DNA of 64,000 nucleotides from Escherichia coli. Its GTDB lineage: Bacteria; Pseudomonadota; Gammaproteobacteria; Enterobacterales; Enterobacteriaceae. Shown here in pieces: positions 863-24,043 of the stretch. The notes under the pieces were generated by a model. That model ran no database searches. It saw nothing but the letters and a program-made list of their open reading frames with translations, and was not told where the DNA came from. The DNA lies in the NCBI RefSeq assembly GCF_046105845.1, contig NZ_CP151004.1. The stretch is one strand, 5' to 3'. A program made the position numbers and the translations under genes. The number at the start of each line of letters is the position of its first letter. Positions within the stretch are counted from its first letter, which is position 1.

Positions 863-1033
863 TTCCTGAACTTCAGAATCATCTTGCTGCTGCTTCGATT
901 CAGCAAGGATAAAGGGTATGATAGTGAAAAGGGATAAAAGCATTGTCATCTGCGGCAGCTATGAGTAATGTTGGCCCTAACGAATAGCGGTTGCTTAAAC
1001 GAATCCGACTCTCACATTATCAGGGGTATAAAA

Positions 1034-1363
1034 ATGGAAACTACCAAGCCTTCATTCCAGGACGTACTGGAATTTGTTCGTCTGTTCCGTCGTAAGAACA
1101 AACTGCAACGTGAAATTCAGGACGTTGAGAAAAAGATCCGTGACAACCAGAAGCGCGTCCTGCTGCTGGACAACCTGAGCGATTACATCAAGCCGGGGAT
1201 GAGCGTTGAAGCAATCCAGGGCATCATCGCCAGCATGAAAGGTGACTATGAAGATCGCGTTGACGATTACATCATCAAAAATGCCGAGCTCTCCAAAGAA
1301 CGCCGCGATATCTCCAAAAAGCTGAAAGCTATGGGCGAAATGAAAAACGGCGAAGCGAAGTAA
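1034..1363 (+). CDS. yeeX: YeeX (DUF496 family) protein, 109 aa
   Basis: Translation from internal ATG begins [29 protein letters not shown], matching remembered YeeX; the supplied ORF has an upstream in-frame extension that is probably not used. Confidence 0.9.
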
Positions 1364-1463: not shown

Positions 1464-1907
1464 TTAGCGACAGCCTTCTTCTGTATGCAGCAAGGCTAAA
1501 AGTTCTGCAACTCCATTGTTATTAACCACACTGGTTACTAACACGTTGTGCGCTCCAGCTTCCCGTAACCAACATTTCACCAAAGATAGTTGTTCCATGT
1601 TGGCTAAATCTGCTTTGGTTACTACTCCAATGACCGGGCGATTCATTGACGAGGTAAAGCCTGGCGAAAAAGGTGACCACGGTGCGTCCGCATTAAGCAC
1701 CAGCGCGATAATGTCCGCTTCGCAGGCACTGACCAACAGTGCACTGTAGAGGCTGCGGTTTTCGAGGTATTCGCCTGGTGTATCAATGGTGGTCGGGGAC
1801 CAGACGATTGCCTGCGTTTTCTGATAATGAATATTTTCGCCACGCAGACATTGCGTGAGTGACGTTTTTCCGCACTGGCTGGGGCCGATGAGCATCATAC
1901 GTTGCAT
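1464..1907 (-). CDS. pduV: PduV, EutP/PduV family GTPase
   Basis: 147 aa; P-loop [10 protein letters not shown] near the N-terminus; last gene of the pdu array. Confidence 0.9.
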
Positions 1908-1911
1908 AACG

Positions 1912-2262
1912 TCAGGTTCGCGTAATGGGGCAGGCGGTAAAGCGCATCATTTCACCCAGCGTACGGGTAACCTGGCTAAGTGCATATTCGATCGCAGAAA
2001 CATCACCAGTCAGCACTACGGCACCGGTAAAACGATCAAGAAAACCGATCTCTACAGAGCCTGATTTTGTGGCGATATCACATGCGATGATAGATGCTTC
2101 GCTGGGGGTAATTGTAAGAATACCAATAGCGGAAATGGTGTCTGGTAAACCCAATTTCTTAAACAGATCCTTCCCTGGATTGGCGATGACATGTGCCAGC
2201 GTGACCTGCTTACCAGGGACATATTCCTGAATCATCCGTTCAGTTGTGTGCTGAGTTGTCAT
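1912..2262 (-). CDS. pduU: PduU microcompartment shell protein (circularly permuted BMC domain)
   Basis: Internal start gives about 116 aa beginning [33 protein letters not shown], matching PduU; the supplied ORF has a short upstream extension. Confidence 0.85.
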
Positions 2263-2816
2263 TATCCCTCCACCATCTGACGCCACATGGCTCCATGTGG
2301 ACGGGCAATCACTGACCGATAGACCAACAAACCTTTTTCCCCCGCACGCTCGCTGGCGACAGAGACCGCGTTATTAACATCTGAAATATCGCCAGCAACC
2401 ACCATGTAGCATTTACCACCAATGCCAAAAGCCATATGTACGCGAACGAGAATGACATTCGCAGCTTTGACAGCACAATCGGCAGCGTCAATGCAGGCGG
2501 CGACACCCCAGGTTTCGACTACGCCGACAGCCCGGTGCTGTTCAACATGGTTAAGTCCGCTGATTGCAGAAAGGAGGCTGGGATGAATATTCGGCAGGAC
2601 AAGACTGTCGACCAGCATTTCACCAGCAAGGGACGCTCCGCTGTTGATGGCCTGTTGCACCGCGCCCACATCGCCACCGAGCATCAGCAGAAATTTTCCG
2701 GGGCATAGCGTTTTGCTGACCAGTAACTCAACGTTGGCGCTTTTCAGCATGGCGTCGCCGGTTTCCATCCCTTTCGCGATACTGCTAAGTTCTAAAATAC
2801 CTACCGCTTTCGACAT
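2262..2816 (-). CDS. pduT: PduT microcompartment shell protein (tandem BMC domains)
   Basis: 184 aa beginning [32 protein letters not shown] and ending [13 protein letters not shown]; two BMC-like halves. Confidence 0.9.
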
Positions 2817-2818
2817 CG

Positions 2819-4162
2819 TTAACCTCTCACAAGCGTAATCGCGTTTTCTGTCACATCGCTGACCATGCCATCAATACTGGCATGAATGGGGGCACCTAAT
2901 GTGCCGTGTGGAATTTGACCTACATATTGCCCATGAACGACGCGATCGCCTTTTTGTACACACGCAATTGCGCTGGCACCGATGTGCTGGCGTAACAATA
3001 ACGTCACTTTTTCGGGTTGAGGCACCTGTTCAGACAATGGCGCATCCTGATACCACGGGATTAGGCCCAGTCTGGTTACCAGCCGTTTTACGGGAATCAG
3101 TCGATAATTTGCCATGGGATCAGCAGGATTTAAGGCACCTTCGTAGCGGAGATTTTGTGCGCGTAATTCCTGCTTAAGCAGACGGTTTATGCGCATTGGT
3201 GAAATTCCTACCGGACAGGCGACGCTGGCGCAGACGTTGCACTCCGAACAGGTGAGCGCCGTCAGTAACAGTTGTGGCGTAGCGAGCTGTTGGTAGTTAA
3301 CCGCACGTACTAATAAATGGGGGGCCAGTTCGTGACCGACTAAATGACGTGGGCAGAGATCGGTACACAAGCGGCATTGCTCACAAACAGTTTTCGCGAC
3401 GGCAAGTACGCTGCGGTCATTCTGCATTCGACGTTGGATCAGTGAATGAGAGTTGGGTAAAACCAGCAAGCCGCCAGTGGTTTTGCTGACTGGTGTGTCG
3501 AGCGATGTGATCAAACTTCCCATCATCGGCCCGCCATTGATAAAACCAGGAGCATCCACTGTTGCGCCGCCCGCCAGCGCCAGGACTTCACGTAAAGACA
3601 TGCCGATGGGGACGGTTACCGTTATTGGTTTCGCCACTGCACCATTAACGGTGAGTGTGCGGCGCGTCACTGGATACTGTTGCTCGACGGCTCTGGCAAT
3701 ATTAAGTACGGTTTGAACATTATTGACCACCACACCGACGCTAACGGGTAATGCAGCGGGTGGAACGCGGCGACCAGTTGCCATCCAGATGGTCAGCACT
3801 TCGTCTCCTGCGGGGTAAACATCGGGAAAAATATGCAGGCGGATATCCGGTGGTAATAGGGGTGTGAGTGCGTTTATTGCCAGTTGATATTTCTCTTTCA
3901 GCGCGATGATTCCGCTACTGGCCCCGGTGGCTTTCATCGCATAGTGAACACCGCGAAGCAGGCGGCTGGCTTGCTGCGCCATTAACTGTTGATCCACTTT
4001 CAACATGGGTTCGCATTCCGCCGCATTCACCAGGAACGTGTCAACACGCGCTTGTAGCTTAATATGGGTTGGGAAACCTGCGCCGCCAGCACCCACGACA
4101 CCTGCTGCCTGTACTCGCTCGCGGATGGTCTGGTCGTCGCAGGAGGTTAACTCGACGTTCAT
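2819..4162 (-). CDS. pduS: PduS cobalamin reductase (Fe-S flavoprotein)
   Basis: 447 aa; glycine-rich [13 protein letters not shown] motif and cysteine clusters [12 protein letters not shown] / [13 protein letters not shown] typical of the RnfC-like PduS. Confidence 0.9.
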
Positions 4163-5271
4163 AACAACTCCTCGAGCAGTTCTGCAATAGCGGTGGCATC
4201 AGCCGCACGCGGGTTGGTACGCAACGTTGCATCCGCCAGTGCCGCCTGAACCATATCTGGTATGCGTATTGACCATTCTGCTTTTTTTTCTTTCAGCACA
4301 TTGGTAAGAGTCGGTAGCTTACAGGTTGTTTTAAGCTGTTCAATATGTTGAATAAGTGCATTCAGGCTGGCGGTGTCATTGGCGTTGTCCGGGCATAAAT
4401 GGCACGTTTTCGCCAGCCGGGCGTAGCGTTTGGCAGCGCGCGGATCGCCAGCATTAAAGCGGATAACTGCCGTGAGCAGGAGCGCATTCGCCAGGCCGTG
4501 TGGCAGATGAAACTGTCCGCCGAGTTGATGAGCAATTGCATGGTTTAAACCGAGTCCGGCCTGGCTAAAGGCCATTCCTGCAAGCGTCGATGCATTATGC
4601 ATTTTGCCACGGGTGGCAAGACAATTGCCTTTTTTCACTGCAGTGGGCAGGTATTGAAAAACAATTTGCACGGCTTTTTCGACCAGTGCATCCGTGAAGT
4701 CGCTGGCGCGAGGAGAAACATAAGCTTCAAGCGCATGGGTTAAAACATCCATCCCGGTATTGGCCGTTATCGCCGGTGGCACGCTGACGATCAGAGATGG
4801 ATCAAGGATCGCGATATCCGGATAAAGTGCATTATCGAAAAGGGGATATTTAATCCCTTTCTCAGGATCGCTGATGACACAAGCACTGGTCACTTCGGAA
4901 CCGGTACCGCTGGTGGTAGGAATGGCTACGCAGGTTTCAATTTCAATGCCACACTGGCGACCGAACCAGACAATCGCTTTTGCGGCGTCCAGGGCAGAAC
5001 CGCCGCCAAAACCGATAACCACATCCGGGCGTAAAGTCTGCATTTGCGCAATGCCTTTCACCACGGTCTGGATAGTTGGGTCGGGCGTTATTTCGCTAAA
5101 AATACTAAGACGATTACTGTCGGGCAGCGCCTGATGCAACGTGTCAATAAGTGGTGAGCGTGCCAGAAAGGCATCGCAAATAATCCAGATGTGTCTATGA
5201 GAGAAACGGCTAAGTACCTTGAGACTTCCTGGTCCGCTGTATAAACGCGTCTGCAGTGAAAAAGTATTCAT
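4159..5271 (-). CDS. pduQ: PduQ 1-propanol dehydrogenase (iron-containing alcohol dehydrogenase family)
   Basis: 370 aa; GGGS motif and histidine-rich metal site typical of Fe-ADH; position between pduP and pduS. Confidence 0.9.
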   Translation of the reverse strand: MNTFSLQTRLYSGPGSLKVLSRFSHRHIWIICDAFLARSPLIDTLHQALPDSNRLSIFSEITPDPTIQTVVKGIAQMQTLRPDVVIGFGGGSALDAAKAIVWFGRQCGIEIETCVAIPTTSGTGSEVTSACVISDPEKGIKYPLFDNALYPDIAILDPSLIVSVPPAITANTGMDVLTHALEAYVSPRASDFTDALVEKAVQIVFQYLPTAVKKGNCLATRGKMHNASTLAGMAFSQAGLGLNHAIAHQLGGQFHLPHGLANALLLTAVIRFNAGDPRAAKRYARLAKTCHLCPDNANDTASLNALIQHIEQLKTTCKLPTLTNVLKEKKAEWSIRIPDMVQAALADATLRTNPRAADATAIAELLEELL

Positions 5272-5281
5272 TTCCGTTTCT

Positions 5282-6667
5282 CTAGCGAATTGAAAAGCCG
5301 CTGGTTAACACGCAGCGTCGTGAGCGGGCAAAAGTCCGTGCTGACGTTGTCCCTTCTCCGGTCGGTGTTGCAATGGTAAAGGTCGTAAAGCCTTCGCCGC
5401 CGACGCCAATACCCGCCCAGGAGGGGCCGTTTTTGACAAAGATTGAGGTTTGCATAACGCGTGCGGCAAGGTTGAGCCGTGAGACGTTCTGCGAGTGCAT
5501 AATTGCCGTGTGGTGCAAGCCGTCTTCCACTTTCAGCGCCAGGGTGAGAGCGCTATCAAAATCGTTGACCTTCACAATGGGCAGCATTGGCATCAGTTGT
5601 TCACAAGTAACCCAACTATCATTGGCGTCGACAACAGCAATCAGTAGGCGCGGCGCTTTTGCGGGCAAAGGGAGGCCTGCCGCTTCCAGCAAGGCTGATG
5701 GGCTTTTCCCAACCAGTTTTTTGTTGGCGCTACCGTCTGGCAGGCAAATTGCACGCAATTTCTCCGTTTGCTCATAGTTAAGAAGAAGCGCGCCAAAACT
5801 TTGCATCTGCTGAATTAAATACTCTGCCACTGATGCTACGACAATCAGGCTTTTTTCAGCGATACACGGCAGGTTGTAATCAAATGAAGCGCCGTTGATG
5901 ATATCTTCGGCGGCTTTCACAATATCCGCCGTTTCATCGACGATACACGGAGGGTTACCCGCTCCGGCACCAATCACTTTCTTGCCACTTTTCATTCCCA
6001 TGGCGACGATCCCCGGACCGCCGGTAATCGCCAGAACGCTGATTTTAGGGTGCGCCATCATCTGTTCGGTAGCAGCAAAGGTCGGTTCAGATACGGTAAC
6101 GATCAGGTTATGAATGCCACTACAGCGAAACGCGATGTCTTCGATTATGGTAATCAGTTTTAACGAAACGTTTTTGGCTCCCGGGTGTGGACTGAAGTAG
6201 ACGCTATTACCTGCTGCCAGCATGCTGATGCTGTTGTTAATGATGGTTTCCGTGGGGTTGGTGCTTGGCGTGACCGAGCCAATCACCCCAAACGGAGAGT
6301 ATTCAAACAAAACCATGCCACCATCACCGGTCAGTGCTGTGGTGGTTAAATCTTCAATTCCAGGCGTGTTATCAAGTGCCGCTTTGTTTTTTAGGTACTT
6401 ATCTTCTTTATTTCCCATCCCCGTTTCTTTGGCGCTTTCTTCTGCCAGTTCGGTCAGGCGGGGCATTAATTCTTCGCGAATGGCGCTGATAATGGCGCTA
6501 CGGGTTTTAAGCGGGCACTGTTGAAAGCGTAAAAAGGCCTGGTGTGCTGCGCAGACCGCTTCATCAACAGTCTGGAAAATAGCGTTTCTTTGCGCTCGTT
6601 GCGTAGCGGGGGCAAGCTGCTCACGCAGAATATTGCGGATCAGTGTTTCTAATTCAGAGTTATTCAT
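5282..6667 (-). CDS. pduP: PduP CoA-acylating propionaldehyde dehydrogenase
   Basis: 461 aa; begins MNNSELETLIRNILREQL and ends SARTFARSRRCVLTSGFSIR, matching the aldehyde dehydrogenase PduP family. Confidence 0.9.
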   Translation of the reverse strand: MNNSELETLIRNILREQLAPATQRAQRNAIFQTVDEAVCAAHQAFLRFQQCPLKTRSAIISAIREELMPRLTELAEESAKETGMGNKEDKYLKNKAALDNTPGIEDLTTTALTGDGGMVLFEYSPFGVIGSVTPSTNPTETIINNSISMLAAGNSVYFSPHPGAKNVSLKLITIIEDIAFRCSGIHNLIVTVSEPTFAATEQMMAHPKISVLAITGGPGIVAMGMKSGKKVIGAGAGNPPCIVDETADIVKAAEDIINGASFDYNLPCIAEKSLIVVASVAEYLIQQMQSFGALLLNYEQTEKLRAICLPDGSANKKLVGKSPSALLEAAGLPLPAKAPRLLIAVVDANDSWVTCEQLMPMLPIVKVNDFDSALTLALKVEDGLHHTAIMHSQNVSRLNLAARVMQTSIFVKNGPSWAGIGVGGEGFTTFTIATPTGEGTTSARTFARSRRCVLTSGFSIR

Positions 6668-7671
6668 TGGTTTACTCCCACGTTAATTGCCGCCATTGCG
6701 CTTTGGGCAATATCCATGTCTTGTTCAACGCTACCACCGCTGATGCCAAGCCCCCCGAGCAATATTCCGTCACGCCAGAGGGGGAAGCCGCCACCAAAGG
6801 TGACGACTTTGCCTTGCATATGGCTTTCGAGCCCATAAAGCGGCGCGCCGGGTTGCACGGTATCAGCAAGCTTGTGGGTTGCTGTTTTCATCGCCACGGC
6901 GGTCCAGGCTTTTTTCGGTGCCAGTTCACTGCTGACCAACAGGGCATCAGGCATCCGCCAGGTAACACTTTCTGTTCCGTTGGCATCAACAATGCTGATG
7001 ACAACGGGAATATGCAGTTCATCCGCGCGCATTGCCGCACTACGAATGAGCTGGTGAAGATCCTGAAATGTGAGCGGCATTGTGCGTTCCTTCAATGCTG
7101 GTGTGTGGTTGGCTTCGTGATAACGTTTTGTGATTTCCTGAATCATCAGGTTTTGATGAGCAACGTTGTCTTCCACTCGGGCGAGGGCATACAGGCAATC
7201 GGAAAGTCGGTTGATATAGTGCAGCAAAACATTCCGGACGTTGGTTTCCGTTGTCAGTTCAACCAGACGTCTTTCAGCCCGTCGAGCCACTGTGCGGGCG
7301 AAATGCATGTGGCTTGCGGCTTCAGATCGACCAGGCAGAATGAAGCTGTGAACTGGGGGGACGGCGTTCATTGCGCTATCGATCGCGTTTTCCAGCGCAG
7401 CAATTTCTTCCGTACTGATGTAACGCTGCTTCGCTGACGGCTGTTCGCTTTCACTCGCGAGTTCGGCGCTAAACCAAAATATCTGTTGTTGAATGGCTTC
7501 CAGTAAGATGCGATGGCTTTCGATGGCGGTGGCGCAATAACACAGACTGAGTGTCGCGTTCAGTTCATCCAGCGTGCCATAGGTTTCGACACGTAGATGA
7601 GTTTTGCTGACGCGCTGTCCGGTAAATAAAGACGTACTTCCTGAATCACCTGTTCGGGTATAAATTGCCAT
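6664..7671 (-). CDS. pduO: PduO ATP:cob(I)alamin adenosyltransferase (with C-terminal DUF336-like domain)
   Basis: 335 aa beginning MAIYTRTGDSGSTSLFTGQRVSK, the characteristic PduO-type adenosyltransferase N-terminus. Confidence 0.9.
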   Translation of the reverse strand: MAIYTRTGDSGSTSLFTGQRVSKTHLRVETYGTLDELNATLSLCYCATAIESHRILLEAIQQQIFWFSAELASESEQPSAKQRYISTEEIAALENAIDSAMNAVPPVHSFILPGRSEAASHMHFARTVARRAERRLVELTTETNVRNVLLHYINRLSDCLYALARVEDNVAHQNLMIQEITKRYHEANHTPALKERTMPLTFQDLHQLIRSAAMRADELHIPVVISIVDANGTESVTWRMPDALLVSSELAPKKAWTAVAMKTATHKLADTVQPGAPLYGLESHMQGKVVTFGGGFPLWRDGILLGGLGISGGSVEQDMDIAQSAMAAINVGVNQ

Positions 7672-7682
7672 CTTTCAGCTCC

Positions 7683-7958
7683 TTAGCGCGAAAGCGTATC
7701 GACAATGCCGACCACTGCCAGGTCGATGGCTTCGTTAGGGCCGGAAAACACATGTCTGGCGCTGGAACCACTGCTGAGGAGTACCAACTCACCAACGCCT
7801 GCGCCGACGGAATCAACGGCAACTTCGTCGCCAGTTAATGGCGTGAGAGGCAGTTCGCCGTCAGCACTGACCCGGCGAACCAGCAGCAGTTTTTTCCCGA
7901 TCAGAGAAGGTGATTTTTGCGTGGATACTACCGCGCCAGTGACTCGAGCCAGATGCAT
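7683..7958 (-). CDS. pduN: PduN microcompartment vertex protein (EutN/CcmL family)
   Basis: 91 aa; [17 protein letters not shown] start typical of EutN/PduN pentamer proteins. Confidence 0.85.
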
Positions 7959-7961
7959 AGG

Positions 7962-8453
7962 TTACTCCTGCCTGATTAACTGAATATTTCGGGTAATTGC
8001 CGCTTCACGAGCCAGTGCGGTCACACAACATTTCCGCTGTAACACCAATATTCCCGAGCTTAACTGTGCGATATCGACATAACTTAAAAGTCGATCATGA
8101 TGTAGGTAGATCGGTTGCCCTTGTTCGTCGCACCAGCTTAGCGGTAGACGGGCGAGAGTCTTCAATTCAATGGCGTTCAGGAAATGACGCTGCAACGCCA
8201 ATTGAATGTGCATTCCCCAGGCTAACGCTTCGTGTATCTGGATTGCTGCTCGATCTGACGTTTCGTTCTCCGCAAGTTGTCGCAGCAGCGGCAGATCGAC
8301 ATATCGGATTTGTAATGACGCATACTGATGAACGCTCTCTTGAACGCTGGCGTCTCGCAGTTGAAAAACAGTCAGCACGAGTGTTTTTCCCGCACGTTGT
8401 TTAAGGCGAAAAACCACTTCGTCAACAATACGTTGCATCAGTATGTTATTCAT
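7962..8453 (-). CDS. pduM: PduM microcompartment-associated protein
   Basis: 163 aa ORF in the conserved pduL-pduM-pduN position; no enzymatic motifs. Confidence 0.8.
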   Translation of the reverse strand: MNNILMQRIVDEVVFRLKQRAGKTLVLTVFQLRDASVQESVHQYASLQIRYVDLPLLRQLAENETSDRAAIQIHEALAWGMHIQLALQRHFLNAIELKTLARLPLSWCDEQGQPIYLHHDRLLSYVDIAQLSSGILVLQRKCCVTALAREAAITRNIQLIRQE

Positions 8454-9082
8454 GGCATTGACACCAGTGTGGCAAAAACGTCAGGGCTATCAGCCCCTGC
8501 GGCGTTGGCCTCATCGGTATCAATATGCATTTCAAGACGCATATCCGGAGAGACGCGAACAGCGACGTTTTCGAATATCAGTCGTCGCTCATCACCTTCA
8601 ATGGCAACCGCCACTTTTTCGCCATGCGTAACGCCATAAATCAGGGCATCCAGCGGAGACATATGAATATGCCGTTGCGCGACAATGACGCCAGATGTGA
8701 TCTCCAGTTCCGCAAATGGACTTATCAAACGAATCCCCGGAGTGCCGCTGAGATCGCCTGACATGCGTAGCGGGGCGGTGATCCCTAACGTTCTGGCGTC
8801 CGTCCGGGAAATTTCCACCTGACTTGCATTGCGTAGCGGCCCCAACAAGCGAACGTTGTGCAATTTACCTTTTGGTCCCTCCAGCGTAACAACCTGTTCA
8901 GCAGCGAATTGGCCAGGTTGCATTAACGGCTTTTTCTCGCTAATCGGTTGTTCAGGAAAAAGACGCAAATAATCCGCTGTTGAAAGATGAATATGACGAC
9001 TGGAAACACCCAGAGGGATAGGGCGCTCACGCATCTCATCCAGAATCTGGCTCACTGTTTCCTGCAAGGTTTGTTTATCCAC
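8450..9082 (-). CDS. pduL: PduL phosphate propanoyltransferase
   Basis: 210 aa; position and size match PduL; 4-nt overlap with pduM. Confidence 0.85.
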   Translation of the reverse strand: MDKQTLQETVSQILDEMRERPIPLGVSSRHIHLSTADYLRLFPEQPISEKKPLMQPGQFAAEQVVTLEGPKGKLHNVRLLGPLRNASQVEISRTDARTLGITAPLRMSGDLSGTPGIRLISPFAELEITSGVIVAQRHIHMSPLDALIYGVTHGEKVAVAIEGDERRLIFENVAVRVSPDMRLEMHIDTDEANAAGADSPDVFATLVSMP

Positions 9083-9084
9083 TG

Positions 9085-9507
9085 CTACTCCCCTCGCTTA
9101 TTGGTGTGCAGGCAAAGTGAGCGGGGCTCACCTTTTTGCCGCTGACATGCCGGGTCAAGACACAAATTACAACTGATAATCTCTGAGGTGACGGTTGTTG
9201 CTGGTGTTTCGCTTGTTTCAACCGTCCCAGTCAATGCTTCAGTTGTGTGGGGCAGAATGCCGTCTCCCGGGCGGGCAATTACTTTGTGTGCGACAAGGCT
9301 ATTTCGCTGTCCGGCGAAACTGGCTCCCGTCGCGATCGCCGCATTAACCGAGGCGACGTCACCGGTGATTTTGATGAGCGTCCAGCCTGAGCCATTGGTC
9401 TTCTCAAGGCCAACCAGCATGATAGACGCGGCTTTTGCCATAGCGTCTGCGCAACTGATGGCGAGAGCCAGACCACTGACTTCAAGTAATCCCAGTGATT
9501 GCTTCAC
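9085..9507 (-). CDS. pduK: PduK microcompartment shell protein with C-terminal cysteine motif
   Basis: 140 aa; N-terminal BMC domain (LGLLEVSGLALAISCADAMAKAA) and C-terminal CNLCLDPAC motif. Confidence 0.85.
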   Translation of the reverse strand: MKQSLGLLEVSGLALAISCADAMAKAASIMLVGLEKTNGSGWTLIKITGDVASVNAAIATGASFAGQRNSLVAHKVIARPGDGILPHTTEALTGTVETSETPATTVTSEIISCNLCLDPACQRQKGEPRSLCLHTNKRGE

Positions 9508-9530
9508 GCTGTGCTCCTTAGCAAATGGGG

Positions 9531-9806
9531 TTATGCCGATTTAGGTAAAATAGCCTCAACATCACTGTGTGGGCGCGGGATGACATGGCAGGATTTCACT
9601 TCGCCAACTGCGCTTGCCGCAGCGCTCCCCGCATCCACGGCGGCCTTTACTGCACCAACATCACCGCGGACCATCACCGTAATCAGACCCGAACCAATCT
9701 TTTCATAGCCAACCAGTTGCACGTTGGCGGATTTAACCATGGCATCTGCAGCTTCAATTGCGCCAACTAACCCTTTTGTTTCAACCAGTCCTAGTGCGTT
9801 GTTCAT
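9531..9806 (-). CDS. pduJ: PduJ microcompartment shell protein (BMC domain)
   Basis: 91 aa; [41 protein letters not shown] is a canonical BMC hexamer sequence. Confidence 0.9.
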
Positions 9807-9825
9807 ACTGCTTTTCTCCTGTGGA

Positions 9826-10176
9826 TTATGAGTGGAGTTCCCGGAAGGGAATCCCTTTTACCAGGCGGGCAGCGTTAGAGCCAATGCTGCGCCGGGCATG
9901 GTTATCTTGTTGATACATCAGCGTAAACAGTGGCGCTGATGCCGGTAAGTTTTTGTAATGCACAATCAGTTTTTCCTGATCGCAGGCAATGCCAACCAAC
10001 AGGGGAGATTGACGAGCAGCCAGCCAGGCGCTATCGATAACTTCACCTGACGGAATGTGTTGAATGCGAAAGGGAATACCTTCCTCTTCAATGCCAAGAA
10101 GCACCTCATCCCATATAGTGATGCAGTTACCGATCTCCATGACGACGATGGCTGGTGCTCGCTCTTTACTTTCCAT
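9826..10176 (-). CDS. pduH: PduH diol dehydratase reactivase small subunit
   Basis: 116 aa following pduG with 11-nt overlap; conserved position and size. Confidence 0.85.
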
Positions 10177-11998
10177 GAATCGACTCCTTGTGCCAGGCGA
10201 TGAGTAGCCCAGTAGCTACCGCGTTGCGCGGACCTTCGCTACCACGGATATTCCCCCGTCCGGCGACCAATCGATAATGCGCCAATGCATCGGTGACTAA
10301 CTGCGGTACTTCGAAATCCAGCGAAGAACCGCCCACCAGAACGACGAACGGAATATCGCGAATATTTCCTGCAGGGCTTACCTGACGTAGCGCGCGCAGG
10401 GCATTGGTTACGAAGACACGCTCTTTCGCACTGCGACGGACAGCGCGTACTTTTTCCAGCGTCAAATCACCGGGAATAGGCACCAGTTCGTCGGGTTTCA
10501 CTACACAGACGCGGGCAAATACATGGGGGGATAGGGGAGTAGGGAAGAACTGAACGCTGCCATCTTCATGGCGTAAGTGGAACAGGCTTTCTACTTTTGC
10601 CAACGGGTACTTTTTGATTTCTTCTGCCAGATAACGATCATTTAAGCCCAGCTCACGAACGATAATCATCGTTACCATGTCGCCCGCACCCGCAAGGTGA
10701 GTGGCAACAATTTCCCCTTTCTGATTGATGATGGAGGCATCGGTAGAGCCTGCACCTAAGTCCAGAATTGCCAGTGGACGTGTGGTTCCAGGGGTAGTCA
10801 AGGCCCCCTGAATGGCGGCTTCTGCTTCTGCGCCTCCTACCTGAACATCAACATGCAGTTTTTGCTTAATTTCACTGGCGATCATTGCCATTTGCAGACG
10901 GTCGGATTTCACCATAGAGGCAATACCCACAGCCTGTTCCAGTGAAAATTCACCTGCCAGACCGCCGGTTACGCTGACGGGGACAGAGGTATCTATCGCC
11001 AGCAAATCCTGAATAAAAATTTCGTTGCTGGGTTTGTTGGTCAGTTCCGCCATGGTCTGGCGAACATGTTCCAGCATTCCGCCGATGTTGGTGCCTGGTT
11101 CTCCCGTCACGTTTTCCAGTTTTGGGCACTCACCGACCGCTTTCATAATGGCATCGGCACCAGCAGCTACATCAACGCGCGTTGTGCGCCCGGCAGAAAG
11201 CAGTTCGATATTTCCGGCGGGTATCGAACGGGCTTTAACGTCGCCAGAAGGCGTTTTCACTACCACTGCTGAACGGTTGCCGATTAGCGCCCGCGCGACA
11301 GGAACAATATTTTTAGTCTCTTCAGCATTGAGGGCGAAAACGGTGGCAATCCCATACGGGTTAGATAGGGTTTCGATAACTTTCCCGGGAACGGCAACTT
11401 CAATTGCAGCCAGCATGCCGAGCGGAATACGATCGATGTAGAGGACTTCATCAACAATAGGTAGAGGAATTTCCAGGCGGTTATTGACCAGTACGCCATC
11501 GTCGCGTTGCAGAATAACGCCAGTCAGCTGATATCCGGCGCGTACGGAGGCGTTTATCATCGTCGCGATATCGGCAAAATCAAATGCCGATGACACCACC
11601 AGGATGTAAGGTGTGTCCGCCGGGCGTGTTAATAACTCTTGCGGAGTGATGGTGAGCCCTACGCCCAGCCCCACTCCGCCCGGAGTTTTCGGGTTGTGAC
11701 CGATCATGGTTGATTCGGTGATGATGGTTTCAGTGATGGTTTCCATCGCCACATCACCAATGACCGGAGTTGCTTCGTTGATACGAATAAGCGAAATATC
11801 GCTAACATTGATGCCGACTTTTTTCGTTGCCTGTGCGAGCGCCTCCTGAATACCATGGACGTTACGCAACGTACCTTTAATTCCGGTGGTTTCCGCCAGG
11901 GCGCTACTTACGAACGACAACTCTCCAGTTGCACTGAGCGTTGCCAGCGCAATCTCTGTTGATGAGTTACCGATATCAATGCCTGCTATATATCGCAT
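10166..11998 (-). CDS. pduG: PduG diol dehydratase reactivase large subunit
   Basis: 610 aa beginning MRYIAGIDIGNSSTEIALA, the actin-like ATPase fold of DhaF/PduG reactivases. Confidence 0.9.
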   Translation of the reverse strand: MRYIAGIDIGNSSTEIALATLSATGELSFVSSALAETTGIKGTLRNVHGIQEALAQATKKVGINVSDISLIRINEATPVIGDVAMETITETIITESTMIGHNPKTPGGVGLGVGLTITPQELLTRPADTPYILVVSSAFDFADIATMINASVRAGYQLTGVILQRDDGVLVNNRLEIPLPIVDEVLYIDRIPLGMLAAIEVAVPGKVIETLSNPYGIATVFALNAEETKNIVPVARALIGNRSAVVVKTPSGDVKARSIPAGNIELLSAGRTTRVDVAAGADAIMKAVGECPKLENVTGEPGTNIGGMLEHVRQTMAELTNKPSNEIFIQDLLAIDTSVPVSVTGGLAGEFSLEQAVGIASMVKSDRLQMAMIASEIKQKLHVDVQVGGAEAEAAIQGALTTPGTTRPLAILDLGAGSTDASIINQKGEIVATHLAGAGDMVTMIIVRELGLNDRYLAEEIKKYPLAKVESLFHLRHEDGSVQFFPTPLSPHVFARVCVVKPDELVPIPGDLTLEKVRAVRRSAKERVFVTNALRALRQVSPAGNIRDIPFVVLVGGSSLDFEVPQLVTDALAHYRLVAGRGNIRGSEGPRNAVATGLLIAWHKESIHGK

Positions 11999-12007
11999 AG
12001 TTCGTCC

Positions 12008-12526
12008 TTAATCGTCGCCTTTCAGTTTTTTGCGCTCGACATAAAGCTCCGCAGCTTCACGGACAAATGCAGCACAAATTTTGGCCTGATAACGCCGTTC
12101 AAGATCGTCAGCAATGGCAATGAGTTCTTGCTTAGTCGAACGATAAGGGCGTAACGCATTGTAGATTTCGAGGATACGATCATCCGGTACTGAGGTAAGC
12201 TCAGCGGCGCGTTCAAAATTCATCGCCAGACGATCGCGACCAGCATCTCTGGCAATCGCAGCCTGAATACGCAATGTTTCAGGGGTAATGCGCATATCCT
12301 GGGCGGTGACGTTATCGCTTAGCACATTTTCCAGAGTGAAATCGTCGAGCGTTTTATTGGTTGCTGTTTTAACCCATTCCGGATGTTTATTTGCCAGCGG
12401 ATAATCCGTCACTTTGGCGCTCTGTATTGACGCGCTGGGGACCGCAGAAACAGGAGCTGCATCCTGTAAACTGTTCATGCGATTCAACACGTCCCTGACC
12501 ATCGACTCAATTGCATCGGTATTCAT
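12008..12526 (-). CDS. pduE: PduE diol dehydratase small (gamma) subunit
   Basis: 172 aa; position after pduD. Confidence 0.9.
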   Translation of the reverse strand: MNTDAIESMVRDVLNRMNSLQDAAPVSAVPSASIQSAKVTDYPLANKHPEWVKTATNKTLDDFTLENVLSDNVTAQDMRITPETLRIQAAIARDAGRDRLAMNFERAAELTSVPDDRILEIYNALRPYRSTKQELIAIADDLERRYQAKICAAFVREAAELYVERKKLKGDD

Positions 12527-12540
12527 GAAGATTTCCTTTG

Positions 12541-13209
12541 TTAAAACGTCACGCGCAGTTCTTGCGGTTTTTTGCCAGTGACCACGTACTTCGTCTCTTT
12601 GATATGCAAAATGGCAGATTTAGCCTGGTATTTCGGCCGCGCCATTTGATCGTTGAGGGTCGGCACCGGTTGTGGAGACTCACGCTTTGCATAACGCGCG
12701 GCGTTTTTGCCAATCTGACGATAAGTTTCCAGCGTCAACAAAGGCGCTTGTGGGAATAGTTCCAGGTTAGACAAGGGAGGAAGACCCTGCTGGTGGATAA
12801 CCGTTGTGCCTTTCGACTGAATACCGATAGCAATACCTGAACCACTAAGACGATCGCCTTCGACTGCTACGAATGCGACATCGGACGATTTAAAGCAGCG
12901 AATCACACGGGCTTTAATGCCTTCTTCTTCAATACCAGCAATCACTTCGCGCAAGATGTTTTTATGCGGAATACCGATGATATTGACGGTTTGCGCCAGG
13001 CCGAACGCCGGGCCTACAGCAATAATGACTTCATCTTGCTGAGTGCCTTGTTGGGCTTCGCCAATTTCGGTCAGAAAATTTCCGGTATCTGGCGCGGAAG
13101 AGGCAGTTGCAGAGACAGGTGCGCGAAATGAAACGGGCTTGTCGCTGGTTTGCATTTCTGCCAGCACGTCTTCGATAATCTGACGCAGTAATTTTTCGTT
13201 AATTTCCAT
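12541..13209 (-). CDS. pduD: PduD diol dehydratase medium (beta) subunit
   Basis: 222 aa; position between pduC and pduE. Confidence 0.9.
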
Positions 13210-13218
13210 GTCTCACCC

Positions 13219-14883
13219 TTAGTCAATTTCGTTGGGATCAAGTGCACCGGGAATATTTTTGATCTCTTCCCAGCGTTCCCCTTGCAGGCGGTAACCTGTA
13301 GCCGGTCCGGCGTAATCATTGACGTCATTGACCGCAGAGAGCACTTGTCCGTCATCGACGATGATGGCTGAGGTATGGAGATAATCGCCGGTCAGTTTTG
13401 CTTTTTGCATGTTGAGCATGTCCTGGGCGACATCGGTAAAACCGCCTTGCGCCAGGGCTTTCACCACTTCCAGGCTGTTCCGGTTTTTATTGATAATCTC
13501 CTGGGCGAACTTGATGTCTTCCACAATATTGCGCTCAGGCATATCTTTTGAACCGTGGGCATAGGTTGCCGCTTCGACTTCTTCATCGGTAATAGGCGGT
13601 AGTCCCATACCGGCAAAGACAGCCTGTAAAGCGCGAGCGGCTTTATTGCGGATAGCGATAACATCTTCTTCGCGTACTGGTCGCAGGCCGCCATCAACCT
13701 TCAGGTCACGCTGAATGACGTTGTAATCATCGAAGTCTTCAGCATCTTCGTTTGAACCAGCAAACATGTTGTCATAGTTCGGCACAGCGGAAAAACCGGA
13801 AGAGATAAAGTCGGTACCTGGCAGAAACTGCATCAGGAAACGTGCGGTACGGCGCATATCCGAGTGGGTAAAGGTCTGGTCATTACTGGAGGCGCATTCC
13901 AGATCCAGCGATGAGCAAATTAAGTTTTCCGCTAATACTGCGCGGATGCCTGATGGCACAGCTGATGGAACACCGATGCAGCTTACCGAACCATTCTGCA
14001 GGCCCTGAACGCCTGCGGCTTTGGTGATGTAAATGCAACGAGCCTCGAGATAAAGCATTGATTTGCCTTCCGCGTAACCCATCTGTACTTCAGAGCCGGA
14101 GCCGGAAGTAAAGCGCATTTTTAAGCCGCGAGACGCATAGGATGACGCGAGAAATCCTTTTGACCACGGGGTGTCATCGCCATCGGTGAAAACAGGTTCT
14201 GTACCATAGACAGAAATTGTTTCGGCGTAACAGGTGTGGCCTAACATACCGAGTTTCAGTTCGGTGGCTTCTTCCAGTGAACACTGGGTCAAGACGCCCG
14301 GACGTCCCACCTGTGAGCCGACCAGCAGGGCGATGGCGTTGAACGGGGCATAGCGAGCAACGGCAACGGTGGTTTCCTGTTCATCAAACCCGCGCCATGC
14401 GCCTTCAGCTGCGTCGGCGGCAATTTGTACCGGGTTATCTTTGACGTTGGTGACGTGAGCCTGTTGTGATGGTGTTCGACGGGCGCGCATTTTCTGCATC
14501 GCCATCATCATCTCTACCACGTTCATCAGCGAAACAACTTCGACGATTTTTGCAGGCGTCATTGCTGTGGTAAGGGGAACGATATTGCTACGTTTGACAT
14601 TTGGATCGCACAACATATTGGCAAGTTTTACCGAATCCATCGCGATGACTTCTTCTGCGCGCGCGAGATTGATGCCGTAGCGGGCGATAAAGTGGTCGAT
14701 CAGGTCAAACTGGCTGGCGGGTTTTCCATCCAGTTCGGTAACGACGCCGTTAACAATTTTGATTGATGGTTTAGGATCGTTCGGGCTTTCCATCGCAATG
14801 AAGCCTTCTTCAATCCACTCTTTAACGAAACCGTCCTGGTTGACCGGGCGTTTTGCCAGTGCTTCAAATCTTTTCGATCTCAT
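13219..14883 (-). CDS. pduC: PduC B12-dependent diol dehydratase large (alpha) subunit
   Basis: 554 aa beginning MRSKRFEALAKRPVNQDGFVKEWIEEGFIAMESPNDPKPSIKIVNG, matching the diol/glycerol dehydratase alpha family. Confidence 0.92.
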   Translation of the reverse strand: MRSKRFEALAKRPVNQDGFVKEWIEEGFIAMESPNDPKPSIKIVNGVVTELDGKPASQFDLIDHFIARYGINLARAEEVIAMDSVKLANMLCDPNVKRSNIVPLTTAMTPAKIVEVVSLMNVVEMMMAMQKMRARRTPSQQAHVTNVKDNPVQIAADAAEGAWRGFDEQETTVAVARYAPFNAIALLVGSQVGRPGVLTQCSLEEATELKLGMLGHTCYAETISVYGTEPVFTDGDDTPWSKGFLASSYASRGLKMRFTSGSGSEVQMGYAEGKSMLYLEARCIYITKAAGVQGLQNGSVSCIGVPSAVPSGIRAVLAENLICSSLDLECASSNDQTFTHSDMRRTARFLMQFLPGTDFISSGFSAVPNYDNMFAGSNEDAEDFDDYNVIQRDLKVDGGLRPVREEDVIAIRNKAARALQAVFAGMGLPPITDEEVEAATYAHGSKDMPERNIVEDIKFAQEIINKNRNSLEVVKALAQGGFTDVAQDMLNMQKAKLTGDYLHTSAIIVDDGQVLSAVNDVNDYAGPATGYRLQGERWEEIKNIPGALDPNEID

Positions 14884-14901
14884 AAATCTGCCTCAGAGAA
14901 T

Positions 14902-15714
14902 TCAGATGTAGGAAGGGCGATCGTTTTTCGGTGTATCGCCGAGAGTCGAAAGCACGGTTTTACCGATTTCGCGTGCAGAGATGACCGCCTGGCGGACTGC
15001 GCCGGAGTCACCCGAGATAATCAGAATGACTTCATTGCTGTAGCTGGTGCCTTGAGCGGGGGAGCTGTATGCCACAACATCCACATTGGCGGACTTCAGC
15101 GCGGTGTCGGCCATCAGAACACCCACAGCAGCCGGAGCGCCGACAATAACGCCGCAAGCCCGTCCCAATGGTGCACCAAACGCTTTTTCCAGTGCATAGC
15201 TGGCGCGGGCGGTATATTGCAGCTCAAGATGTCCGGCTTCGTTGGCATAGACATCGCCAAAGGTCCGATCGAGTTCTTTCAGGGCGACTTCAATACCGCG
15301 TTTCACGTCGGAAACATCGTTGCCACCTAAGAGGATCAATGAGCCATGTCCGGCACCGCCTTTAGTATCCCGAGGAAGTTCAATGCTAATAACTTCAGTG
15401 TTGGTGGCTTTTACCGCTTCATCAGCGGCCATAATGTGTGGCCCTGCGCCAATACGCGCACCCAGAATGCCAATGGAACGATAGCGTTTTTCAAGTTTCA
15501 TTGCGTCCAACAGGGCGCTATCAACGTTCGCAATGACCAGACCTACAGTGTCGCCAATAGCGGTGCCAACAAATTCTGTTAACGTGCAGCTTTTTTCTGC
15601 CATAGCCGTCTCTCGTATTTGATGAGTGGTTTTCGGGAGAACCTCATGCTCTGGCGTCGCTACGCGAGCGATGACCTGCGCCATGATCTGTTTGACCAGT
15701 TCATTGCTGCTCAT
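14902..15714 (-). CDS. pduB: PduB microcompartment shell protein (tandem BMC, trimer type)
   Basis: 270 aa; position between pduA and pduC. Confidence 0.9.
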
Positions 15715-15995
15715 GGGTTAATTCCCTTTGGTAAGATTTTTTCGACATCGGTATGTGGGCGGGGAATAATGTGCACGGCTTTTACTTCGCCGACGTTACG
15801 CGCAGCTGCGGCACCTGCGTCTGTTGCCGCTTTTACCGCCCCGACATCACCACGAACGATGACGGTCACCAGCCCGGAACCTATTTTTTCGTAGCCGACC
15901 AGCAAAACATTTGCCGACTTCACCATGGCGTCTGCGGCCTCTATGGCGGCAGTTAAGCCTTTGGTTTCTACCATTCCTAACGCTTCTTGTTGCAT
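15711..15995 (-). CDS. pduA: PduA major microcompartment shell protein
   Basis: 94 aa; [57 protein letters not shown] is a canonical BMC domain; first gene of the minus-strand operon. Confidence 0.92.
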
Positions 15996-16506
15996 AAAGA
16001 CCTCGCCTGGATTTTTTTGACGATATGACTATAAAAAAAAACGAGGAAAAAGAATGGCTGACTTAATCGGCTAATCAGAAAAATTAATAGAGAACAAATA
16101 TTATAAAATTGCTTTTATGAACTATATGTTGTTAATTTATTAGTTGTTTTGTGGATATTTCAATGTGAATTAATTGCGTTGGCTAGTGAGTTTAATCGCG
16201 AGTAATATTTCGTTGAGTTTGGTTCGAGGAAGGAACTGTGATATTTGTTTCAATTTTATTATGTCATGATGGCAATTTTTTACTGTAAAAGTTTGGTGGA
16301 AATTATTACTTTCAACACTGATTAACGCTGTGTTGCATGATTCGGCAATGACAATAATTTGTTATGTTAGCACGATTTTTACACGAGTCTGTCATGCATG
16401 TTAGCAATATTTTCTGCAGAGCAATTTTTTATAGTTGCGCTCGATATACACAACAATCAGCGCATAGTTGGCTGATAAAGAAAAACTCCGTAAAGAAGGT
16501 GTCACT
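15996..16506. promoter_or_regulatory. Divergent AT-rich control region between pduA (minus) and pduF-pocR (plus)
   Basis: About 510 bp without coding potential, strongly AT-rich, between two divergently oriented gene starts; corresponds to the PocR-controlled pdu promoter region in Salmonella. Confidence 0.6.
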
Positions 16507-17316
16507 ATGAATGATTCACTCAAGGCGCAATGCGTTGCCGAGTTTTTGGGCACCGGACTGTTCCTCTTTTTTGGCATTGGTTGTTTGTGCGCCCTGAAAC
16601 TTGCCGGGGCAAGTCTGGGACTGTGGGAAATTTGTATCATTTGGGGGTTAGGGATTTCGCTTGCTGTTTACCTTACGGCAGGTATTTCCGGCGCTCATCT
16701 CAACCCGGCTGTTACCATTGCTCTGTGGCTGTTTGCCTCTTTCCCTGCCCGTAAAGTGCTGCCATTTTGTGTGGCGCAATTAGCGGGTGCCTTTGGTGGT
16801 GCGGTTCTGGCATATTTTCTCTACAGCAGTTTGTTTACCGATTTTGAATCTGCTCACAATATGGTGCGTGGTAGTGCAGAAAGTTTACAACTCGCCAGTA
16901 TCTTCAGTACTTATCCGGCAGCGGCGATTAATGTATGGCAAGCTGCGTTGGTCGAAGTGGTCATAACGTCCATGTTAATGGGGTTGATTATGGCGTTGAC
17001 CGATGACGGTAATGGCGTACCCAAAGGACCGCTTGCGCCTTTACTTATTGGTATTCTGGTTGCTGTTATTGGTGCTTCTACCGGACCATTAACCGGTTTT
17101 GCCATGAATCCAGCGCGTGATTTTGGACCTAAAATTTTCACCTGGCTTGCGGGTTGGGGGGAAATTGCGATGACTGGTGGACGCAATATTCCTTATTTCA
17201 TTGTACCCATTATTGCACCGATCATTGGCGCATGTGTTGGTGCGGCGATTTATCGCTATCTCATTGCAAAGAATTTACCTGTCAATAGTGTAACGCCTAA
17301 AGAAATTAGCGAATAA
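16507..17316 (+). CDS. pduF: PduF propanediol diffusion facilitator (MIP/aquaglyceroporin family)
   Basis: Internal ATG gives MNDSLKAQCVAEFLGTGLFLFFG; NPA motifs (HLNPAV and MNPARD) present; the supplied ORF carries an upstream extension. Confidence 0.9.
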   Translation: MNDSLKAQCVAEFLGTGLFLFFGIGCLCALKLAGASLGLWEICIIWGLGISLAVYLTAGISGAHLNPAVTIALWLFASFPARKVLPFCVAQLAGAFGGAVLAYFLYSSLFTDFESAHNMVRGSAESLQLASIFSTYPAAAINVWQAALVEVVITSMLMGLIMALTDDGNGVPKGPLAPLLIGILVAVIGASTGPLTGFAMNPARDFGPKIFTWLAGWGEIAMTGGRNIPYFIVPIIAPIIGACVGAAIYRYLIAKNLPVNSVTPKEISE

Positions 17317-17518
17317 CGAAATAATCTGGCAGTTATAAACGTTTATTTTTTTACTGTTTGTGATCTGCTTTCCGAACTTATTAAAAAGTCTCCCGCTTCA
17401 CGGAGGCTTTTGTTATTGTCCTTTGTGCTTCTCGTCAGTAAATCATCAGGGATGATGTGAAGATTAAATGTAAAACAATTGTTTTGCTATAACAATAAAT
17501 TAACTGGGAGGTTTTATC

Positions 17519-18433
17519 ATGATTTCTGCGGCGACACTTAATTCAGAACTCATTAATAAAATCGCGCAGGATTTTGCGCAGGCGACCAGCCTTGCGGTTG
17601 TCGTGGTCAATATTCACGGCGATGAAATTTCCGAGCTGTTTAACTTCACTCCATTTTGTCAGATGATGCGGCAACACCCTCAGCTAAGCACTCGATGTCG
17701 CATGAGCGATCGTTGTGGGGGCTTGGAAGCCTCTAAATCCGATCAGCCTTGTATTTATCGCTGTCATGCCGGATTAACCGATTTCTCTATTCCACTGGTA
17801 ATCGCCGGGCATTTAGTCGGTTTTGTATTGTGCGGGCAAGTTCGTCTGCGTAATGATGATGTCGATTTGGTCGATATTCTGAATGTCGATGATTGCTGGC
17901 AGGCAGATCCCGAATTACTTAATGAATTCCGCAAAGTTCCTGAGATGGATTACTCAAGAGTTATGGCCTCTGCTGATTTGTTGAAGTTGATTGTGGAAAA
18001 TTGCCTCAAAAAACAACTCAATTTTGTGGTTATTAAAGAGAACAAATCTCAGTCAGATTCGGTGCGCCAGACTCGTGCGCCTAATCCCCACGACAATAAA
18101 ATGAAAAAAGCTTTACGCTATATTGATGCGCATTTATCAGACGATTTGCGTCTGGAAGATGTCGCCTCACACGTTTATCTAAGCCCTTATTATTTCAGTA
18201 AGTTATTTAAGAAATACCATGGAATCGGGTTTAATGCGTGGGTAAACCAACAACGGATGGCCAGCGCTCGTGAGTTACTGTGCCATAGTGACTGGAGCAT
18301 CGCCAGCATTGCGCGTAATTTAGGTTTTTCACAAACAAGTTATTTTTGCAAAGTTTTCCGTCAGACTTATCAGGTTACGCCGCAGGTGTATCGACAGCAA
18401 GTGAGTGATAATGCGGCGATGGAAACGGTATAG
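17519..18433 (+). CDS. pocR: PocR, AraC-family activator of pdu/cob genes
   Basis: 304 aa; C-terminal AraC-type HTH region (LRYIDAHLSDDLRLEDVASHVYLSPYYFSKLFK); position after pduF. Confidence 0.9.
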   Translation: MISAATLNSELINKIAQDFAQATSLAVVVVNIHGDEISELFNFTPFCQMMRQHPQLSTRCRMSDRCGGLEASKSDQPCIYRCHAGLTDFSIPLVIAGHLVGFVLCGQVRLRNDDVDLVDILNVDDCWQADPELLNEFRKVPEMDYSRVMASADLLKLIVENCLKKQLNFVVIKENKSQSDSVRQTRAPNPHDNKMKKALRYIDAHLSDDLRLEDVASHVYLSPYYFSKLFKKYHGIGFNAWVNQQRMASARELLCHSDWSIASIARNLGFSQTSYFCKVFRQTYQVTPQVYRQQVSDNAAMETV

Positions 18434-18534
18434 AGTAAATGCCCCAAAAAAAGAGGACGGTTTAAATAAACTCTGCAATGAATAATTAACGTTATTTACC
18501 TGTTATGGGAAAAGTGAAATCAGCTCATAACATA

Positions 18535-18790: not shown

Positions 18791-18921
18791 CGGCATCATT
18801 TAGTTCTTTCATCGCAGTGCCGACAGGCACCAGGGCTGCACTTAAGGTGTGGCAATCTTGTTTCATGGCTCATCAACCAGACCGCCATTACAGGAAACTA
18901 AGTGGAGGGCGAGAGGCATGA
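18787..18921 (+). pseudogene. 44-codon mini-ORF, possible decayed 5' end of cbiA
   Basis: Starts MAA directly after the riboswitch, as cbiA does in Salmonella, but diverges after a few residues; stop TGA overlaps the next ATG (ATGA). Confidence 0.3.
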
Positions 18922-19355: not shown

Positions 19356-19488
19356 TGGATTGAGAATGCTGGATTTTTAATTATATTACGCGCAGTATTA
19401 ATCGCGTAAATGTTTTGCGGTCAGCAACGGTGGGGGATCCATTGTTCTGTTCAATGAATACCATCATACAATTGAATCAGGAGTCGGT

Positions 19489-24038: not shown

Positions 24039-24043
24039 TAATT

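Follow-up and report, generated by a model that had tools for sequence, protein, structure and literature searches.

Short overlaps of stop and start codons in an intact, compact pdu operon of Escherichia coli: ordinary junctions with plausible translational coupling

The pdu operon of Escherichia coli examined here lies in a window of 64,000 nucleotides (nt) from contig NZ_CP151004.1, the window being the whole stretch of DNA analysed. The intact operon runs from 1464 to 15995 on the minus strand and is made up of 19 consecutive open reading frames (ORFs), pduABCDEGHJKLMNOPQSTUV. Six of its 18 junctions are overlaps of stop and start codons, and we consider it probable that these are genuine short overlaps of an ordinary kind, already noted by others, in a tightly packed operon. 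A previous description made without database searches (the sequence-only reading) had reported these overlaps between 2262 and 15714, had called them expected for this operon, and had taken them as consistent with translational coupling that sets the stoichiometry of shell proteins and enzymes. The description is correct: all six overlaps are found in the window at the genes and sizes that it gave, the interval is the span from the pduT/pduU overlap to the pduA/pduB overlap, the gene names agree with NCBIfam and Pfam, and the packing is indeed the ordinary one already described for the operon. The interpretation is partly supported: coupling is plausible, and the control of stoichiometry is not supported.

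The junctions were read on the coding strand from the ORF translations, and all of them lie on the minus strand. Four overlaps share the 4 nt ATGA: pduA/pduB (15711-15714, in the context ...AACCC ATGA GC), pduL/pduM (8450-8453, ...GCC ATGA AT), pduO/pduP (6664-6667, ...CCA ATGA AT) and pduQ/pduS (4159-4162, ...GTT ATGA AC). The pduT and pduU genes share 1 nt (2262) within TAATG (...GGA TAATG AC), and pduG and pduH share 11 nt (10166-10176; ATGGAAAGTAA, in the context ...TTC ATGGAAAGTAA AG). Four further junctions nearly abut: pduK/pduL (2 nt, 9083-9084, with a GTG start for pduL), pduS/pduT (2 nt, 2817-2818), pduM/pduN (3 nt, 7959-7961) and pduU/pduV (4 nt, 1908-1911). Under a termination-reinitiation model the 2-nt pduK/pduL spacer is equivalent to an overlap. 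The remaining spacers measure 9 nt (pduC/pduD and pduE/pduG), 10 nt (pduP/pduQ), 11 nt (pduN/pduO), 14 nt (pduD/pduE), 18 nt (pduB/pduC), 19 nt (pduH/pduJ) and 23 nt (pduJ/pduK). Therefore, no junction exceeds 23 nt, and ten of the 18 lie between -11 and +4 nt. The geometry typical of coupled genes (-8 to +6 nt) is seen at five junctions at -4 or -1 and at four junctions at +2 to +4, pduG/pduH (-11) being just outside. Gene ends were checked against the Prokaryotic Genome Annotation Pipeline (PGAP) annotation of E. coli ECA64, which gives the same ends for the six overlaps and agrees on the boundaries of every one of the 19 genes once a uniform offset of 2601 nt is applied.

The six overlapping start codons are well supported by comparison of the encoded N-termini, which were aligned across 13-14 gammaproteobacterial relatives. 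In PduB, PduP and PduM, conservation starts at residue 1. The N-terminus of PduP, MNNSELETLIRNILREQL (alignment consensus MNxSELETLIRxILxEQL), corresponds to the stretch that bioRxiv 10.1101/2021.10.27.466122 names as the protein's N-terminal signal sequence for encapsulation, and the same work reports that the N-terminus of PduB is required for enzyme loading. It could be argued that the overlaps are annotation artefacts, the true starts lying downstream so that the genes do not overlap, since the choice of starts by sequence alone is uncertain and the N-termini of PduS and PduU are variable in sequence or length. However, the PduS junction keeps its ATGA in spite of the changes in N-terminal length among relatives, the sole internal Met candidate of PduU (ERMIQEY) is replaced by Val in several species, and the N-terminal alignments contain no conserved internal Met able to replace the start of PduH, PduS or PduU. 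In addition, PGAP independently selects identical starts, and the passage of PMC3836489 that deals with the pduB start credits its overlap with the pduA stop to the protein work of Havemann & Bobik (2003). For pduU, the longest-ORF rule would choose a GTG at 2286, with a 25-nt overlap with pduT; PGAP, the homologue alignment and a GGAGGG Shine-Dalgarno motif all favour the ATG at 2262 instead. Mis-annotated starts are thus ruled out by the alignments, the agreement with PGAP and the published functional N-termini, and an origin of the overlaps in annotation is highly improbable.

Two other start codons of the operon deserve mention. The GTG start of pduK is preceded by AAGGAGCACAGC at the pduJ/pduK junction (9500-9530). 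A GTG start with an AGGAG-type motif is present in the window and in 13 of the 14 Enterobacterales loci checked, the upstream sequence being different in locus L020; the exact AAGGAGCACAGC string is common to ten of those loci, and none has an in-frame ATG upstream of pduK. Sargent et al. (2013; PMC3836489) judged a GUG start of pduK likelier than an AUG found in strain LT2, and the absence of an in-frame upstream ATG from the checked loci supports the start that they favoured. In pduB, an in-frame internal ATG (Met38, 15601-15603), located 111 nt past the first start, is kept in all aligned relatives, Salmonella included, where it is the start that gives the shorter PduB' form.

The junctions were compared among 80 loci gathered with PduL as probe, in which Pdu homologues were mapped; 16-20 gammaproteobacterial loci, including those of Escherichia, Citrobacter, Salmonella, Phytobacter, Hafnia, Yersinia and Vibrio, were available for each junction. 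The starts of the relatives were chosen automatically as the start codon nearest to the aligned N-terminus. The pduA/pduB overlap is found in 17 of 17 of these loci (4, 1 or 14 nt, the last possibly an artefact of this choice) and the pduG/pduH overlap in 19 of 19 (11, 8, 14, 4 or 1 nt). Overlaps are also found at pduO/pduP in 16/17 (4 or 1 nt) and at pduL/pduM in 16/19, and the 1-nt pduT/pduU overlap in 16/18; pduQ/pduS is the least conserved of the six (9/16, with outliers at +8 to +55 that may be artefacts of the same kind). At pduA/pduB and pduO/pduP, ATGA and TAATG replace each other and the overlap is retained. Among Firmicutes pdu loci, pduG/pduH is the only one of the six overlaps that is also present (9/11), and those at pduA/pduB, pduL/pduM and pduO/pduP were not found. 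The spacers are conserved as well: pduM/pduN is at +3 in 18 of 19 related loci, pduU/pduV at +4 in 16 of 19, pduS/pduT at +1 or +2 in 14 of 17, pduB/pduC at +18 in 13 of 17 and pduP/pduQ at +10 in 14 of 20. What is conserved is thus the entire junction architecture, overlaps and spacers alike, and not the overlaps specially, and the comparison shows that this pattern has been inherited almost unchanged across the Enterobacterales.

Some loci depart from this pattern. At pduK/pduL the two genes share 1 nt (TAATG or TGATG) in Citrobacter, Salmonella, Yersinia and Hafnia, and pduL starts with GTG in the window (9075-9090) and with ATG in all relatives examined. In S. enterica subsp. diarizonae (L008) and Enterobacteriaceae RIT691 (L009) the usual stop of pduH has been lost and the gene extends 8 nt into pduJ, so that PduH has 125 amino acids instead of 116 and an extra overlap is found just ahead of the most abundant shell gene; this extension is absent here. 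In E. albertii NBRC 107761, pduO and pduP are 290 nt apart and pduQ and pduS overlap by 122 nt, which points to a truncated pduO and a changed end of pduQ; in E. coli SCPM-O-B-8794, pduL is truncated and pduM, pduN and pduO are missing. The pdu operon is decaying in some Escherichia lineages.

The six overlaps, 33% of the pdu junctions, do not exceed what is normal within operons. In most groups of prokaryotes, co-directional overlaps make up about 15% of the gene pairs (Huber et al., PMC6728339), and against this all-pairs figure the binomial probability of at least six overlaps in 18 junctions is 0.04; however, this baseline is too low because all pdu pairs sit within one operon, and with p = 0.25-0.30 the probability is 0.28-0.47. 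Of the 2987 same-strand pairs of E. coli, 707 (24%) are spaced at -8 to +6 nt, and a minor second peak is found at +9 to +12 (PMC10666635); nine and four of the 18 pdu junctions, respectively, belong to these two classes. In the flanking E. coli annotation, three of seven close same-strand pairs overlap (dcm/vsr -20, cobU/cobS -4 and hprR/hprS -1), the others being msrP/msrQ (0), fliQ/fliR (+8), fliP/fliQ (+9) and cobS/cobT (+11). The cobU/cobS overlap (19995-20034) and that of dcm/vsr are taken from the ECA64 annotation, in the case of dcm/vsr from it only, and the hprR/hprS overlap is at 57606 in the window. Overlap kinds and frequency are thus similar to those of the pdu operon, although these are two-gene cases in unrelated operons and pdu has 19 genes. 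The dcm and vsr genes are themselves known to be coupled.

Translational coupling is plausible at the overlapped junctions, judging from their geometry and from the behaviour of similar pairs. Strict coupling was found in 13 of 14 tested gene pairs with 4- and 1-nt overlaps (PMC6728339), and coupling decays with distance and has disappeared by about 20 nt (PMC10666635). Natural translational coupling of pduAB and pduTU was mentioned in 2013 by Sargent et al. (PMC3836489). Our literature search found no direct test of coupling at pdu junctions; a 2026 preprint in which pduN was moved within the operon mentions keeping ribosome-binding sites and contains no coupling test. Termination-reinitiation would be the likeliest behaviour at the ten junctions from -11 to +4 nt. 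At these overlapped and near-abutting junctions, a ribosome that ends the upstream gene probably reinitiates at the downstream start or unmasks it, so that the downstream gene's translation would be tied to that of the upstream one. In most cases a Shine-Dalgarno motif located within the upstream gene would assist reinitiation. Such motifs precede pduB (AAGGGAA, 7 nt upstream, inside pduA; anti-Shine-Dalgarno duplex of -5.3 kcal/mol), pduH (AAGGAG, 6-7 nt, -8.0 kcal/mol), pduP (GGGAG, 6 nt, -6.8 kcal/mol), pduS (GAGGAG, 4-5 nt, -8.4 kcal/mol) and pduU (GGAGGG, 3-4 nt, -9.8 kcal/mol). No recognisable motif was found for pduM (best duplex -2.8 kcal/mol; region 7962-8475) or for pduV, 4 nt past pduU (region 1464-1930), and pduQ has only a weak one. 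These three genes are the best candidates for a strict dependence on upstream translation, which would weigh most on pduM and pduV because they have no motif of their own.

Other explanations of how the junctions work were considered. Masking of downstream ribosome-binding sites by RNA structure was rejected, since predicted accessibility gives no signal of it. The operon does not seem to be split at its junctions by internal promoters or terminators either: consensus matches are at or below the expectation from shuffled sequence, no junction has room for a promoter or a terminator, and one transcription start, upstream of pduA, has been reported in Salmonella (PMC7181861). A PduG-PduH fusion made by frameshifting at the 11-nt overlap was also considered and nothing points to it.

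The strong form of the sequence-only reading holds that the overlaps exist because coupling fixes the ratios of neighbouring shell proteins and enzymes. This was examined with the copies per Salmonella microcompartment published in PMC7181861 (Table 1), which describe the content of purified Salmonella compartments and not synthesis rates in E. coli: PduA 1841, PduB+B' 1505, PduC 543, PduD 423, PduE 376, PduG 76, PduH 38, PduJ 5212, PduK 514, PduL 33, PduM 56, PduN 60, PduO 146, PduP 214, PduQ 145, PduS 49, PduT 289, PduU 130 and PduV 7. The downstream/upstream ratios at the six overlapped pairs are 0.82 (A/B), 0.50 (G/H), 1.70 (L/M), 1.47 (O/P), 0.34 (Q/S) and 0.45 (T/U); all lie within about 3-fold (0.34-1.7), and those at the other junctions range from 0.05 to 137. 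The proposal also gains from the fact that PduG and PduH are two subunits of one enzyme, whose overlap is kept even in Firmicutes, and that genes for subunits of heteromeric complexes show an excess of short overlaps (PMC10666635). However, the narrower spread of the overlapped ratios is not significant (Mann-Whitney p = 0.12), and the difference is gone (p = 0.59) with a classification that follows the junctions of S. enterica subsp. diarizonae, taken as a stand-in for LT2, in which pduK/pduL (-1) and pduH/pduJ (-8) are counted as overlapping. The best-matched subunits, PduC, PduD and PduE (about 1:1:1), are encoded by genes separated by 9- and 14-nt spacers without overlaps, PduG and PduH are found at 2:1 and not at 1:1, and the non-overlapping spacers are as tightly conserved as the overlaps. 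With the exception of PduG/PduH, the overlapped pairs are not among the partnerships reported in PMC7181861, namely PduS with PduO and PduT, and PduP with PduQ. The largest abundance steps, a 137-fold rise from PduH to PduJ (19-nt spacer) and a 10-fold fall from PduJ to PduK (23-nt spacer), are both associated with AGGAG-type motifs. A tracking of stoichiometry with junction type was thus tested with published copy numbers and found non-significant, and it is quite unlikely that the overlaps serve to fix ratios. Coupling may link the expression of neighbours and does not by itself set their ratios; large steps such as the surge of PduJ fall at the longest spacers, where strong independent ribosome-binding sites are located.

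Several observations weigh against coupling itself. Five of the six genes downstream of overlaps have their own Shine-Dalgarno motif within the upstream gene, so that de novo initiation could suffice or tune their levels. Ribosome-binding sites are predicted to be similarly accessible at overlapped junctions and at the others (unpaired probability from -18 to +6 of 0.34-0.62 and 0.34-0.68, respectively), so that nothing indicates sites hidden by structure that would make coupling obligatory. In Salmonella microcompartments there is a 6-fold rise from PduS to PduT, across +2 nt, and a 15-fold fall from PduK to PduL; a short distance does not, therefore, equalise output. The abundances at hand are those of purified compartments of another genus, and no ribosome profiling of pdu was found in the literature search. 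The overlaps could be neutral by-products of compaction, the genes being initiated independently and the overlaps being retained through common descent of an operon that moves as one piece. Both ATGA and TAATG form readily, the start codon already supplying most of the stop codon, and a review (PMC12548453) credits the abundance of 4-nt overlaps to this ease of evolution. Such a neutral origin also agrees with the typical frequency of overlaps (non-significant against operon-like baselines and comparable to that of the flanking close pairs), with the downstream motifs mentioned above, and with the fact that Firmicutes pdu loci without the pduA/pduB, pduL/pduM and pduO/pduP overlaps still work. 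However, the overlap survives repeated sequence change at pduA/pduB, pduO/pduP and pduG/pduH, which argues for maintenance and not for frozen ancestry; pduM, devoid of a Shine-Dalgarno motif, would initiate poorly alone; and almost all tested pairs with such geometry are coupled (PMC6728339). We regard a purely neutral origin as unlikely, and genuine overlaps at which coupling is plausible as the better account.

If coupling operates, the conserved junction pattern may set off translational blocks within the operon, namely A-B, C, D, E, G-H, J, K-L-M-N, O-P and Q-S-T-U-V, a proposal that we put forward tentatively and consider rather unlikely. Ribosomes would be handed on by reinitiation inside each block, spacers of at least 9 nt with independent ribosome-binding sites would separate the blocks, and pduM and pduV would depend wholly on their upstream neighbours. 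In Salmonella, deletion of pduA leaving a Flp recognition target (FRT) scar lowers PduB and PduB' 4-fold and PduCDE 2-fold (PMC7181861), and the authors of that work interpreted the effect as structural coordination. The drop could reflect coupling; in the block model, the loss of PduB/B' would be partly due to coupling and not to structural co-dependence. For comparison, Kennedy et al. ascribed a change of PduCDE expression in a pduB knockout to polar effects.

The closest known systems are the pdu operons of Salmonella enterica and Citrobacter, in which the gene order from pduA to pduV is identical, the six junctions also overlap and the other spacers are near-identical. Compared with S. enterica subsp. 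diarizonae, 13 of the 19 proteins have equal length; PduK has 140 amino acids here versus 147, its C-terminal Cys motif being kept. Unlike in Salmonella and Citrobacter, pduK/pduL is at +2 with a GTG start instead of forming a 1-nt TAATG overlap, and pduW (propionate kinase) and pduX (threonine kinase), which belong to the operon of Salmonella LT2 (PMC7181861), are absent: the operon stops at pduV, with neither gene in the interval beyond it (1364-1463), as in ECA64. The junctions also resemble the coupled pairs of E. coli and Haloferax (Huber et al. 2019, 2023), which are co-directional, show ATGA or TAATG and often have a Shine-Dalgarno motif in the upstream gene. However, coupling of those pairs was shown by reporter fusions and premature stops, whereas the likeness of the pdu junctions is one of sequence geometry, and the 11-nt pduG/pduH overlap is outside the -8 to +6 class. 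The locus is therefore a standard member of the Pdu operon family, with overlaps of the commonest prokaryotic kinds. Its significance is that the strain carries an intact, compact pdu operon with canonical junction architecture, and little beyond that; it raises no new question. There is a caution for the engineering of Pdu microcompartments, since deleting or relocating genes near the six overlaps or the 2-4 nt spacers can alter downstream expression.

Gene identities, checked against NCBIfam and Pfam, agree with the PGAP names in ECA64, whose DNA is 98.8% identical. The genes, all on the minus strand, are pduA (15711-15995), pduB (14902-15714), pduC (13219-14883), pduD (12541-13209), pduE (12008-12526), pduG (10166-11998), pduH (9826-10176), pduJ (9531-9806), pduK (9085-9507, GTG start), pduL (8450-9082, GTG start), pduM (7962-8453), pduN (7683-7958), pduO (6664-7671), pduP (5282-6667), pduQ (4159-5271), pduS (2819-4162), pduT (2262-2816), pduU (1912-2262) and pduV (1464-1907). 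PduB (473 bits against NF011944), PduC, PduD, PduE, PduG, PduL, PduM and PduP are above the curated NCBIfam cut-offs, and so are PduO (N-terminal domain), PduU (EutS-type model) and PduV (EutP/PduV family). PduS exceeds the cut-off for a related RnfC subfamily model only. PduA, PduJ, PduK and PduT match shell models of the bacterial microcompartment (BMC) type, PduN matches CcmL/EutN models and PduQ matches iron-type alcohol dehydrogenase models, all with scores under the cut-offs. Models of the BMC and EutM/EutS types are hit by PduA, PduJ, PduK, PduT and PduU. For the diol dehydratase and its reactivase, NF011979, NF011616, NF011971 and TIGR04491 all pass their cut-offs; PduH matches Pfam PF02288 and PDB 2d0o_B (E = 1.7e-51), a PduH homologue crystallised as 'diol dehydratase-reactivating factor small subunit'. 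The operon encodes the parts of a Pdu-type microcompartment: the B12-dependent diol dehydratase PduCDE with the reactivase PduGH, a shell of BMC hexamers (PduA/J/K/U), tandem-BMC trimers (PduB/T) and the pentamer PduN, and the pathway and cofactor-recycling proteins PduL, PduP, PduQ, PduO and PduS.

Divergent from the operon, on the plus strand, are pduF, encoding a MIP channel, and the regulator gene pocR (16468-18433), given here as context; the annotated start of pduF falls within its ORF in the window and not at the ORF start. The convergent gene tmaR (968-1363, plus strand) lies next to the pduV end. The pdu DNA is about 98.8% identical to that of E. coli chromosomes, and among 5426 complete genomes of the species, 636 carry at least 80% of the operon; identity to E. 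coli in the flanking cobUST-ldtA segment is 97.8-98.9%, and the window is thus E. coli DNA.

Other features of the window were noted. In the region 18525-19488, a cobalamin riboswitch (Rfam RF00174, 109 bits) precedes an orphan ORF (18849-19355) that has no Pfam match and is annotated in ECA64 as 'hypothetical protein'. The genes cobU, cobS and cobT come immediately after it; the cbi genes that the riboswitch would normally precede are absent, unlike in Salmonella and Citrobacter. Rfam also identified two small RNAs on the minus strand: STnc230 (74.8 bits) at 17375-17458, in the pduF-pocR interval and opposite to those genes, and the Hfq-binding rseX (99 bits) at 62019-62108. The ldtA-nac interval (about 23000-32300) has additional ORFs that the ECA64 layout lacks. 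The stretch 32352-53064 contains four tRNA-Asn genes and one tRNA-Ser gene, as well as an ORF of 2895 amino acids (42983-51670, minus strand) that corresponds to the 'Ig-like domain-containing protein' of ECA64, a YeeJ-like adhesin.

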